From Candidatus Latescibacterota bacterium (GTDB lineage: Bacteria > Latescibacterota > UBA2968), in contig OZ242195.1 of assembly GCA_965205975.1 (NCBI GenBank), positions 2,688,001 through 2,752,000 on the forward strand: a stretch of DNA of 64,000 nucleotides, given 5' to 3'. A program made the translations under genes and the position numbers. Each line of letters opens with the position of its first letter. Within the stretch, counting starts at the first letter, position 1. This document shows, in pieces, positions 40,190 to 55,174 of this stretch. The notes below the pieces were generated by a model. It was not told where the DNA came from and searched no databases. It worked only from the letters and a program-made list of their open reading frames with translations.

Positions 40190-40332
40190 GTCATAAAATC
40201 CGCAGAAAAAACGCGAGTGAGCGGGGTACAACTGGCCGCTTCTCAGGCCAGTTCATTTGAGCGTTTTACGCAGATGAACGCAGATGAAAGGCGAGACGGA
40301 TTGCCTTTAATGTCTCGCTTCTATCTCGCGTC

Positions 40333-52161: not shown

Positions 52162-53633
52162 AACAACTCTCCTCCTTCAGCCATCTCTACCGCCCGAAAC
52201 AGTGCCCGCGCTTTGTTCACGGTCTCCTGATATTCGTATTCCGGCTCTGAATCGAACACCACGCCACCCCCTGCCTGCACATACGCTTTGCCATCCTTAA
52301 TCACCATCGTGCGAATGGCAATACACGTATCCATATTGCCCGCAAAATCGATATAACCCACTGCACCGGCATAAGGCCCGCGGCGCGTTGGCTCCATCTC
52401 GTCGATAATCTCCATCGCACGAATCTTCGGCGCGCCCGACACTGTACCAGCAGGATAACAGGCAAAAAGCGCGTCCAGCGCATCGACATCCTCGTGCAAT
52501 TCGCCGCGCACATTCGAAACGATATGCATCACATGCGAATAGCGTTCAATCGTCATCTGCTCGGTCACGCACACCGTATCAAACCTGGAAACGCGTCCCA
52601 CATCATTGCGTCCCAGATCCACCAGCATAATATGCTCGGCACATTCTTTTTTATCTGCCAACAACTCCTGTGCCAGCACCTGATCTTCTGCCTCTGTTTT
52701 ACCTCGCCACCGCGTCCCCGCAATAGGTCGCACCTGCACCACCCCATCTTCTACCCGGACGAGCAACTCGGGCGACGCGCCCACGAGTTGATGATCTATC
52801 AAATCGACGTGAAACATATAAGGCGACGGATTCACCGTCCGCAACGCCCGATAAATATCCAGCGCCTCCACCGTCACATCCATTGCAAAACGCTGCGAAG
52901 GCACCACCTGAAAAATATCACCTGCCACGATGTATTCTCTGCAACGCGCCACCACATCCATATACGCTTCTTTGCTCGTATTTGAAGTCACCGCGCACGA
53001 ACTCGTCCCTGGCTTTAAGGACGCATCCGCAGGTTGCGCCAGTAGCTCAATCAGTGCATCGATCCGCTTGACTGCATCCGCGTAATTAGCCTCCAAATCG
53101 CCCTCTGTATGCACATTGGCCATCACATGCACTTTGTGTGTCACATTGTCAAATGCCAGCACCGAATCGTAAAATGAAAAAAACATATCATCCAGACCGA
53201 GATCGTCTTCAACCGTCTCGGGAATGCGCTCAATCAAACGCACGGCATCATAACTCACGTAGCCCACAGCACCGCCTGTAAATCGAGGAAACCCTTCCAC
53301 GTGTTGCGAGTGGTATTTTTTTAACAAACCTCGCAATACCTCGATAGGCTCCCCGTCAAATAGTCGCAGTTCACCCGTCGTCGTATATTCAACCGAAATT
53401 TTTGTTCCGCGCGAACGAAAAACCAAAAACGGATCCACGCCCAAAAACGAATACCGCCCAATCTGTTCACCGCCCACCACACTTTCAAACAAAAATGCAT
53501 GCGATGATCTGGCGCGAATTTTCAAATAAGCCGAAACAGGCGTCTCTGTATCCGCGAGAAGTTCTCTGGAAATGGGAACGAGGCCACAGCCTTCGCTCAG
53601 CTTCTCGACAGTCTTGAGATCGGGTTGAATCAC
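52158..53633 (-). CDS. trpE: Anthranilate synthase component I
   Basis: [38 protein letters not shown] start after RBS aagga. Confidence 0.96.
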
Positions 53634-53683
53634 TGAAAAATCCTTAAAGTCAAATCCGCAGATGGGCGCAGATGAAAAGTCAG

Positions 53684-53719
53684 AAACAAAAAAGGTCGTG
53701 AGCAGTTTGCCCACGACCT
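53684..53719 (-). terminator. Intrinsic terminator (attenuator) upstream of trpE
   Basis: mRNA AGGUCGUGGGCA-AAC-UGCUCACGACCU followed by UUUUUGUUU. Confidence 0.9.
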
Positions 53720-53745
53720 CGTACTTTTATTCACTTACATCACAC

Positions 53746-53847
53746 TTAAAACGCAGGACAAACCACACTCTTGGACGGGCGGCGATAATAATATCGGCCG
53801 TCAAATCGACGCCAAAAATACCAGAAGTGGGATGTCAAAGCGTTCAT
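53746..53847 (-). CDS. Aromatic-rich leader peptide (33 aa)
   Basis: MNALTSHFWYFWRRFDGRYYYRRPSKSVVCPAF*; ends 26 nt before the terminator, upstream of trpE. Confidence 0.85.
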   Translation of the reverse strand: MNALTSHFWYFWRRFDGRYYYRRPSKSVVCPAF

Positions 53848-53883
53848 TTTAGAGTCCAATTTTCAATTAAAACAGACACAACG

Positions 53884-54114
53884 TTATGAGACAAGTTCTT
53901 CAGCCGGGATGGTTTTTAAAAGGTTCCCCATCACTTTTTTTGCGTTAAAGATATCAACCAGATAAACCTGATTGTCCTTAAATTCAACTGTAAAACCATC
54001 ACCTTCAATCACCTGATCAGATATACCTCGCATATCTCGCCGGAAAAAAAGAATATTTCCGGTTTCAGGATCAATCTTTTTTTCAAAAAGTTCAGGTCTA
54101 AAGTTTAAATCCAT
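53884..54114 (-). CDS. Small protein, putative antitoxin (DUF2283-like)
   Basis: VEFKDNQVYLVDIFNAKK; overlaps the upstream toxin-like ORF. Confidence 0.6.
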   Translation of the reverse strand: MDLNFRPELFEKKIDPETGNILFFRRDMRGISDQVIEGDGFTVEFKDNQVYLVDIFNAKKVMGNLLKTIPAEELVS

Positions 54115-54350
54115 CTTTTTGTCTTCTGTCGGTTGTCAATGATTTTTTGATCTGTTCGATAAATTGTAATAAGATTTTTAGTGCCCGGATCAATGACAAG
54201 AACGAATAGTATGCCCGTAATGCGAATGATTTTGATATCGGTGCTTTGAGTTTTGTCGTAGAAGGTGTGTATTGAACTGCTTTTTGTTACAGCATCTGGA
54301 TCAATTCCATAAAGTTTAAGTTTATCGAGAGCGTGTTGAGTAAAATTCAT
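54105..54350 (-). CDS. Small RelE/DUF4258-like putative toxin
   Basis: MNFTQHALDKL...LITIYRTDQK. Confidence 0.6.
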   Translation of the reverse strand: MNFTQHALDKLKLYGIDPDAVTKSSSIHTFYDKTQSTDIKIIRITGILFVLVIDPGTKNLITIYRTDQKIIDNRQKTKRWI

Positions 54351-54364
54351 TATCAAGTGCGCCA

Positions 54365-54394
54365 AAGATAACAAATTCTAAAACAAATTGTCAA
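54365..54394 (-). promoter_or_regulatory. Sigma70-like promoter
   Basis: TTGACA-18 bp-TATCTT with an extended TG; AATTTGTT direct repeat inside. Confidence 0.6.
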
Positions 54395-54403
54395 GAAGGA
54401 AGT

Positions 54404-55174
54404 TTATTCATGACCGTCAATCGTGCCCACCTCAATTTTCAACTCGTCGCGATCAATAATGCGATCTACGCGGCCATCGCGCACCCACACCACGCGGTCG
54501 GATACCGACAGCATCTTGTGATCGTGTGTCGCTGAAATCACGGTCACGCCCGACTCCTCGTTCATCCGGCGCAACAACTCAATAATCTCCCGCCCCGTAT
54601 TCAAATCGAGATTCCCAGTCGGCTCGTCAGCCAGAATAATCGCTGGATCGTTGGCAAAAGCCCGCGCAACAGCCACGCGCTGCTGCTGACCGCCTGAAAG
54701 CTCAAAAGGCTTGTGCATCACGCGCTCGCCCAGACCGACCTGTGTCAACAATTCTACACCCTTATCGCGTGCCTCGTCGCTCGTCAGCCCGGCAAACACC
54801 ATCGGCAGGGTCACATTCTCAAGCGCTGTCATCACCGGAATCAAATTATACGATTGAAAAATATAACCGATCTTTCGACAGCGCAACCACGCGAGTTCAT
54901 AAGCGTCGAGTTGGGCGACATCGACATCGTCGATATAAACCTTGCCCTCGGTCGGCTTGTCCAATCCACCCACCATATTAAACAAAGTACTCTTCCCCGA
55001 CCCAGAAGGTCCCATAATGGACAGGTATTCTCCCTGCGTCACTTCCAGATCCACACCTTTGAGTGCGTGAATCTGCTCCTCGCCCATTATGTACACCTTC
55101 TTCACATCCTGTGTGCGTACAACCGTTGCCTCTTCGGCCTCTGCATTCGTTTCTGTTTTTTCTTCGGCAGCCAT
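54404..55174 (-). CDS. ABC transporter ATP-binding protein (LolD/MacB-like)
   Basis: GPSGSGKST, LSGGQQQRV, ADEPTGNLD. Confidence 0.95.
   Translation of the reverse strand: MAAEEKTETNAEAEEATVVRTQDVKKVYIMGEEQIHALKGVDLEVTQGEYLSIMGPSGSGKSTLFNMVGGLDKPTEGKVYIDDVDVAQLDAYELAWLRCRKIGYIFQSYNLIPVMTALENVTLPMVFAGLTSDEARDKGVELLTQVGLGERVMHKPFELSGGQQQRVAVARAFANDPAIILADEPTGNLDLNTGREIIELLRRMNEESGVTVISATHDHKMLSVSDRVVWVRDGRVDRIIDRDELKIEVGTIDGHE

Follow-up and report, generated by a model that had tools for sequence, protein, structure and literature searches.

How one long run of trp, tyrS and aro genes is matched to the supply of aromatic amino acids in a bacterium of the phylum Candidatus Latescibacterota is the question raised by the window, the 64,000-nucleotide stretch of genomic DNA that was analyzed. 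An earlier note on this DNA had proposed that a single leader ahead of trpE reads the charging of Phe-, Trp- and Tyr-tRNA together, and possibly of Arg-tRNA. The leader very probably represents a ribosome-mediated transcription attenuator, and the best explanation as a whole, namely, a classical attenuator that likely reads more than one aromatic tRNA, is itself probable. For a real response to Phe, Tyr and Trp alike, which is read from codon content, the chances appear to be about even.

Leader ORF and terminator

The leader ORF (53847-53746, minus strand) contains 33 codons, with two clusters of candidate control codons, F8-W9-Y10-F11-W12 and Y19-Y20-Y21. Its translation gives four Phe, two Trp, four Tyr and five Arg residues, exactly the counts of the earlier note, and the order described there, in which a short ORF rich in aromatic codons is followed by a hairpin with a U-tract and then by trpE, is present. 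At least 10 aromatic residues, making up at least 30% of the peptide, were found in 20 of the 52,324 ATG-started ORFs of 12-45 amino acids in the whole genome. The fold of the 216-nt leader RNA has a z-score of -4.2, and none of 200 shuffled sequences was as stable. The hairpin proposed within the leader itself (53802-53774, minus strand), spanning codons D16-S25, does fold on its own, with -9.9 kcal/mol, and may, judging from folding models, be a pause or protector element.

The intrinsic terminator, consisting of a hairpin (53720-53692) and a U-tract, occupies positions 53720-53684 of the minus strand. The hairpin begins 26 nt past the leader stop codon and is formed by 13 pairs, including a terminal G-U, with -19.4 to -20.8 kcal/mol; the 12-bp stem with a U-tract reported previously ahead of trpE was recovered as the 12 pairs of 53719-53693. 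Terminator-like hairpins between the leader and the first gene were found for 77 of the 79 leaders considered below. In an alignment of 50 leaders, 95.8% of cells pair, and the stem covaries, with two-sided changes in 8 of 11 pairs; these values, which relatedness can inflate, were matched in 0-1 of 500 shuffles.

The gene downstream of the leader is trpE (TIGR00564, above the cut-off), with a likely GTG start at 53633 behind AAGGA; the closest TrpE proteins, 85-96% identical, belong to Candidatus Latescibacterota. Between the terminator and the trpE start, a small extra hairpin (53673-53654) is located, which most genomes of the genus lack; a similar sequence is found again at 40280, possibly as a dispersed repeat.

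Sixteen RNA sequencing runs contain small parts of the window, and the four that were compared with it are all represented by assembled contigs of related strains. Among these contigs, X1 and X2 end at 53688 in the U-tract, X2 with a 16-letter loose end there, X3 ends at 53732, and X5 continues through into trpE. These contig ends are no evidence for termination.

Antiterminator and folding under a stalled ribosome

As the antiterminator, the earlier note had named the pairing of ACGGCC in the leader with GGUCGU in the 5' arm of the terminator. The two motifs can pair, with -8.2 kcal/mol as a duplex, but the role ascribed to them was rejected: no masked fold gave it a probability above 0.01, the pairing is present in 18 of the 55 close leaders (families f1-f3), all of one genus, and the site is hidden when a ribosome stalls on the Tyr run.

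The conserved antiterminator is formed by two other segments of the minus strand. Segment 2 (53763-53752), its 5' strand, has the core 53763-53756 (GUUUGUCC, codons V29-C30-P31), and segment 3 (53720-53705) comprises the terminator 5' arm and loop; the core pairs with 53712-53705 (GGGCAAAC). When each leader was searched for its best ungapped helix with the terminator arm, the end of this helix was at most 22 nt ahead of the stop codon in 69 of 77, and in two more the helix is located just past an early stop. Segment 2 varies between families in step with its partner: ungapped-helix energies are -10.7 to -12.9 kcal/mol within groups vs. -7.5 to -8.6 kcal/mol for crosses between f1-f3 and f4, the pairing within groups being 2-5 kcal/mol better. 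Ungapped helices were used in place of dangling-duplex energies, which, combined with a shuffle control, were passed by 42 of 77 leaders and are partly discriminating. Segment 2 is read in another frame in genome G001 and is located past the stop in G086 and G087, and therefore represents an RNA constraint. Within f1-f3, its core hardly varies and shows weak covariation, with a two-sided change in 1 of 10 pairs; the observed values were matched in 7, 17 and 25 of 500 shuffles, and two measures were no better than shuffled.

For folding in the presence of a ribosome, 15 nt from the A-site were masked, and the RNA ended 7 nt into the terminator 3' arm. Upstream RNA held the terminator arm at 0.92-0.98 when the stall was at F8-W12; the value fell to 0.42-0.46 at R14-G17, a dip that includes F15 (0.44), rose again to 0.94-0.98 at R18-R23 and was 0.00 from S25 onward. 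Both aromatic clusters, accordingly, leave the antiterminator free in the masked folds, and it is lost from S25 on. The same procedure applied to E. coli trpL as a control gave a peak at W10-W11 (0.60). The position of the local hairpin 53802-53774 matches the dip at R14-G17. The value for Y19 depends on the RNA end point and was 0.08-0.23 in other settings, and F33, according to the folding models, cannot act as a control codon. A distance of 22 nt or more, on the upstream side of the antiterminator core, was found for 156 of 178 Phe, 90 of 91 Trp and 226 of 251 Tyr codons of the leaders.

In the folding models, the antiterminator is mutually exclusive with the terminator, free at the control codons and covered at the stop. 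Averaged over f1-f3, however, upstream pairing of the arm core still amounts to 0.47 when the ribosome has reached the stop and to 0.81 when no ribosome is present, and the modelled off state is, for this reason, not clean. Since the full-length RNAs of this leader and of E. coli trpL both fold into the terminator, the switch must be kinetic. The parts of the attenuator, their conservation and their geometry in the folding models are direct observations.

From them we infer translation of the leader, termination in vivo, the acting amino acids and the reach of the transcript. In the proposed mechanism, RNA polymerase would transcribe the leader with a ribosome trailing it. When aromatic aminoacyl-tRNAs are plentiful, the ribosome would pass codon ~25 and cover segment 2 (53763-53752), the hairpin 53720-53692 would form and transcription would end at the U-tract. 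A ribosome waiting at F8-W12 or Y19-Y21 would allow segment 2 to pair first with 53715-53705; the terminator could then not close in time, and the trp-tyrS-aro run would be transcribed. Tyr would act via its dedicated tandem run, and Trp and Phe via the mixed first cluster, most likely more than one aromatic tRNA being read.

Conservation in Latescibacterota

Among the 168 genomes of the phylum, a trpE match was obtained in 105, and the upstream DNA of 101 of them was examined. The 79 leaders among these 101 loci were picked by eye for aromatic content, which inflates the enrichment figures given below. A leader is present ahead of trpE in 30 of 31 genomes of f1, 22 of 22 of f2 and 3 of 3 of f3 (55 of 56 in total, the single miss being a contig end), in 16 of 19 genomes of f4 and in 8 of 26 of more distant families. 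No leader was called at 22 of the 101 loci, namely, all loci of f9, f10 and f12, in which trpE is often inside a longer run, three of f4, one of f5, one of f14 and truncated contigs. With the query used, 57 of 76 genomes of f4 have no trpE match at E 1e-80.

Codons for Phe, Trp and Tyr are all present in each of the 55 leaders of f1-f3. Conservation of the ORF and of its aromatic codons in relatives, on which the earlier note had made its proposal depend, was thus found. Frame 0 is open in all 55 of these leaders and encodes 29% aromatic residues; the two other frames, interrupted by stops in 49 and 34 leaders, encode 9% and 8%, respectively. Within genera, synonymous changes of Phe and Tyr codons and insertions or deletions of whole codons occur in the control region, and Phe/Tyr swaps were found in genus g6. 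The leaders of f1-f3 are further linked by their position and by a shared terminator sequence.

Outside the phylum, an aromatic or WW leader with a terminator was found at 2 of 62 trpE loci (L101 and L110), both Trp-centred; these two leaders ahead of trpE contain WYWRRW.

Gene content of the operon

The co-directional run below the leader (53633-32612, minus strand) extends from trpE through a purF-like gene. Its order is trpE, trpG, trpD, (Gfo/Idh/MocA), trpC, trpF, tyrS, (HMGL-like), trpB, trpA, CM, DAHPS and tyrA, followed by half of aroA, aroE, ubiE, an orf, argS, aroK, (two small ORFs), aroB and the purF-like gene. Most gaps are shorter than 65 nt, and three are 108-421 nt; the small gaps suggest co-transcription of the run of ~20 kb. 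Its gene order is conserved in relatives, with tyrS within the run at 19 of 20 mapped f1-f3 loci, and the proposed attenuator stands, as had been suggested, at the head of a putative superoperon, the leader and the trp-tyrS-aro run both being conserved.

The run of trp, tyrS, CM, DAHPS, tyrA and aro genes named in the earlier note was confirmed, with the exception of aroA, which is represented by its C-terminal half, and of pheA/PDT, which is outside. The aroA of the operon (41167-40472) encodes only the C-terminal half of the EPSP synthase domain (PF00275 positions 225-405) and has about nine GAATAGAC repeats in tandem ahead of it; elsewhere in the genome, PF00275 is matched twice over its full length. 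The genes for prephenate dehydratase (pheA/PDT), pheS and trpS are all outside the trpE run. No TrpR match was found in the genome, which is 98% complete.

At 14 loci of f4 (L203-L215 and L222), trpS is located between trpC and CM, and the mapped run has no trpF, trpB or trpA. Between aroK and aroB, two short ORFs that overlap each other (35762-35342) look by eye like an antitoxin/RelE-type pair, and similar small insertions accumulate in the trpE run of many relatives. The trpB gene at 45742-44532 is 30-61% identical to its positional counterparts, the neighbouring genes being 60-85% identical, and tyrS is only about 30% identical at L191, L196, L197, L199 and L200. The divergence of trpB and, in these five relatives, of tyrS suggests gene replacement in place.

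Inspection by eye of the 520 nt ahead of trpS, hisG, leuA, a cimA-like gene and pheA gave no leader; the 520 nt ahead of pheS are coding sequence. A genome-wide screen for other leaders gave 153 candidates, with the aromatic leader at rank 12, and the best 40 of the 153 were mostly noise. A leader ahead of ilvB is absent among these best 40, and the screen is, for this reason, insensitive. This second leader of the same genome (L227:3438-3358, minus strand; G000 C1 near 3267400-3267500) has 26 codons, is rich in Ile, Thr and Val, is accompanied by a promoter-like TTGACA-17-TATCTT and a terminator, and switches in masked folding. Since it is of the same design, the lineage appears to use leader-type control more than once.

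Putative promoters and upstream insertion

A promoter-like element TTGACA-18-TATCTT (54394-54365, minus strand) matches the consensus, occupies the conserved position of the leader promoter and may serve as such. Of the 21 genomes of the genus, 16 have a TTGACA-N16-18-TATCTT-like element 22-43 nt ahead of the leader ATG; in four, including the genome of the window, it is located 517-554 nt ahead, and in one, no such element was found within 700 nt of the ATG. The distance of ~520-550 nt in four genomes is due to the insertion of two small genes, found here at 54350-54105 (81 aa) and 54114-53884 (76 aa) of the minus strand, between the promoter and the leader. Neither has an NCBIfam or Pfam match; their Atlas scores, 0.89 for a DUF4258 cluster and 0.82 for a DUF2283 cluster at rank 5, are below 0.9, and a resemblance to DUF4258 and DUF2283 proteins is a lead only. 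The two-gene insert is missing from contigs of related strains, in which 54359 is followed directly by 53847, and the sequencing runs contain both forms. In the genome of the window, the insert replaces the AAGGA ribosome-binding site found in most of the genus; therefore, translation of the leader may be weaker there or coupled to the upstream gene.

As judged by consensus matches, a promoter of trpE past the hairpin, named in the earlier note as an observation that would speak against attenuation, was not found in one genus and is suggested in other genomes of f1-f3. No promoter-like element was found past the terminator in the genome of the window or in any genome of its genus (0 of 21). 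Past the terminator of 14 of the 19 f1-f3 leaders outside two large genera (14 of 77 leaders overall), TTGACA is present, with an A/T-rich hexamer 16-18 nt further on (L113, L123, L126-L129, L134, L135 and others). In these 14 genomes, the element suggests a basal internal promoter of trpE, which was likely lost in the two large genera.

These elements, present in 14 of 77 leaders, would also be expected if the hairpin were a plain terminator of upstream transcripts, with an incidental ORF and trpE transcribed from its own promoter. Contigs of RNA libraries in which the upstream ABC gene is continuous with the leader point the same way, but may be DNA. Such an arrangement is nevertheless very improbable, as no such element was found downstream of the hairpin in any of the 21 genomes of the genus, in many of which the U-tract is separated from trpE by only ~25 nt, and the ORF, the promoter-like element and the antiterminator are conserved across families.

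Comparison with known attenuators

Among the five Rfam matches at E up to 10 in positions 53400-54500, no leader, T-box or riboswitch family is present, and no match to Trp_leader or Phe_leader above the gathering score was obtained. The leader is similar to E. coli trpL, as well as to pheL-pheA and pheM-pheST, in its short ORF with control codons, its antiterminator overlapping the terminator 5' arm and its U-tract; with trpL, it also shares the location ahead of trpE, the behaviour in masked folding and motifs of the WxR/WWR type. Unlike trpL, which has 14 codons, the leader of Latescibacterota has 33 codons, two stall windows and three aromatic codon types, its operon additionally contains tyrS, CM, DAHPS, tyrA and aro genes, and neither a TrpR nor an Rfam match is present.

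Several codon types conserved in the stall window are characteristic of a multivalent attenuator, and Phe, Trp and Tyr codons are retained in 55 of 55 leaders of f1-f3. Multivalent attenuators are represented by thrL, ilvL and ivbL, which likewise have one leader with several codon types for a branched pathway and differ in serving the aspartate-family or branched-chain amino acids and not the aromatic ones. The Ile/Thr/Val-rich leader ahead of ilvB is also of this kind. The operons of thrL, ilvL and ivbL are among those listed in PMC1183508, in which modelling predicts a lower sensitivity to each amino acid in mixed control regions.

The aroR-aroF attenuator of Corynebacterium glutamicum (Neshat et al. 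2014, as summarised in PMC11802643) has a Phe-Tyr-Phe leader, which, according to this summary, responds to Phe and not to Tyr. No other mixed aromatic leader with a tested response was found in the literature searched. It is similar in having a mixed aromatic leader ahead of a DAHP synthase operon, and differs in having three control codons, no Trp, a response to Phe only and a location separate from trpL of the trp operon (PMC11802643). Because the Tyr codon of aroR is reportedly ignored, the presence of a codon does not guarantee a response.

Control of common genes or supraoperons of the aromatic pathway was also predicted for uORFC-13-1, located ahead of aroF in Acholeplasma and described in PMC8632094 with Phe codon(s) only, and for putative attenuators ahead of tyrA supraoperons, presented in PMC1173090 with unspecified input; unlike the leader described here, these predictions concern other phyla. 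A table of PMC2659441 has an entry for aroF as sensing Tyr-tRNA, and surveys of pheL are available (PMC3082878). In the literature searched, no tested Tyr-sensing leader was found. In this literature, which is mostly open-access, neither a published description of the leader of Latescibacterota nor a tested leader for Phe, Tyr and Trp together was found.

Amino acids possibly read by the leader

Relative to the average of the genome of the window, leaders of f1-f3 contain 4.5 times as much Tyr, 3.5 times as much Trp and 2.4 times as much Phe, vs. 1.4, 7.1 and 0.9 times, respectively, in leaders of f4. At the 14 mapped loci of f4, all six ORFs tested from the slot of tyrS are trpS, and CM, tyrA and aro genes are retained under the Trp-centred leader. 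Leaders have on average 4.0-4.75 Tyr codons in the 49 genomes whose tyrS is located within 12 kb of trpE, compared with 1.2-1.7 in 16 genomes of f4 that have no tyrS at this distance. In G077 and G011, tyrS is distant from trpE, and the leaders contain two and three Tyr codons; in G011, with tyrS outside the operon, YYY is retained. In four more genomes, the link between tyrS and trpE is broken between contigs. The data are suggestive of a leader composition that tracks tyrS or trpS in the operon and provide about one independent contrast.

The leader can tentatively be regarded as a three-input OR gate, in which two stall windows, a mixed Phe/Trp/Tyr one and the Tyr run, act on one terminator of the superoperon, and the codons would be retuned with operon content: Trp-centred where trpS is in the operon, and Tyr/Phe-rich where tyrS took its slot. 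This reading falls slightly short of an even chance.

It is also quite possible, with the balance somewhat against it, that a real attenuator has in practice one input, Trp, or two, Tyr and Trp; the remaining aromatic codons would be kept for RNA structure or for severe starvation. The precedent of aroR (PMC11802643), the lower sensitivity predicted for mixed control regions (PMC1183508), the location of the Phe-specific genes outside the operon and the variable number of Phe codons, 1-5 per leader, are consistent with fewer inputs. The retention of all three codon types in every leader of f1-f3, the enrichment of Tyr, Trp and Phe in f1-f3 compared with f4, and the location of both clusters on antitermination plateaus argue, on the contrary, for more than two.

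Besides or instead of charging, the leader might read the MiaA/MiaB modification of A37 in UNN-decoding tRNAs or the general speed of ribosomes. MiaA acts on UNN-decoding tRNAs, and its loss stalls ribosomes at the Trp codons of trpL in P. aeruginosa, according to PMC13434334; codons for Phe, Trp, Tyr and Cys are all of the UNN type and all enriched. Leu, however, is depleted (0.3 times the average), Ser is near the average (1.2 times, with a UCN share of 74% vs. 66% in the genome), Cys is mostly found within the RNA-constrained segment 2, and specific amino acids are indicated by the change in composition that accompanies tyrS or trpS. Sensing of modification, which is compatible with sensing of charging and does not exclude it, is accordingly held to be improbable.

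Sensing of Arg through argS in the run, raised as a possibility by the earlier note, gained no specific support. The residues R18, R22 and R23 are on the second plateau, Arg is enriched 2.4 times in Tyr/Phe-rich leaders, and argS is within the run across the class, all of which would agree with a leader that also or mainly reads Arg-tRNA. The enrichment, though, is similar in Trp-centred leaders (2.2 times; 1.5 times in more distant families), the codons are mixed (CGU, CGC, CGA and CGG), and Arg is also present in leaders of f14, whose mapped loci have no argS, and in trpL of E. coli, which contains WWR. Moreover, argS is located 15.6 kb downstream and is the only arg gene of the run. Arg starvation can relieve attenuation of trp in E. 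coli. A role of Arg-tRNA in the control of argS seems doubtful, and charging of more than one aromatic tRNA remains the preferred reading.

Significance

The mechanism is a textbook one, and multi-input leaders are known for other families of amino acids. A short leader element of this type might serve as a pan-aromatic biosensor. Two points become testable, namely, whether Tyr codons drive attenuation and whether leader codons shift with operon content. If the leader is indeed a three-input OR gate, it would provide a working Tyr-sensing leader and, together with its relatives, a natural series of 79 variants on the input gain of an attenuator. For the biology of the phylum, the finding extends leader-peptide attenuation to Latescibacterota, in which the aromatic pathway is apparently controlled without TrpR.
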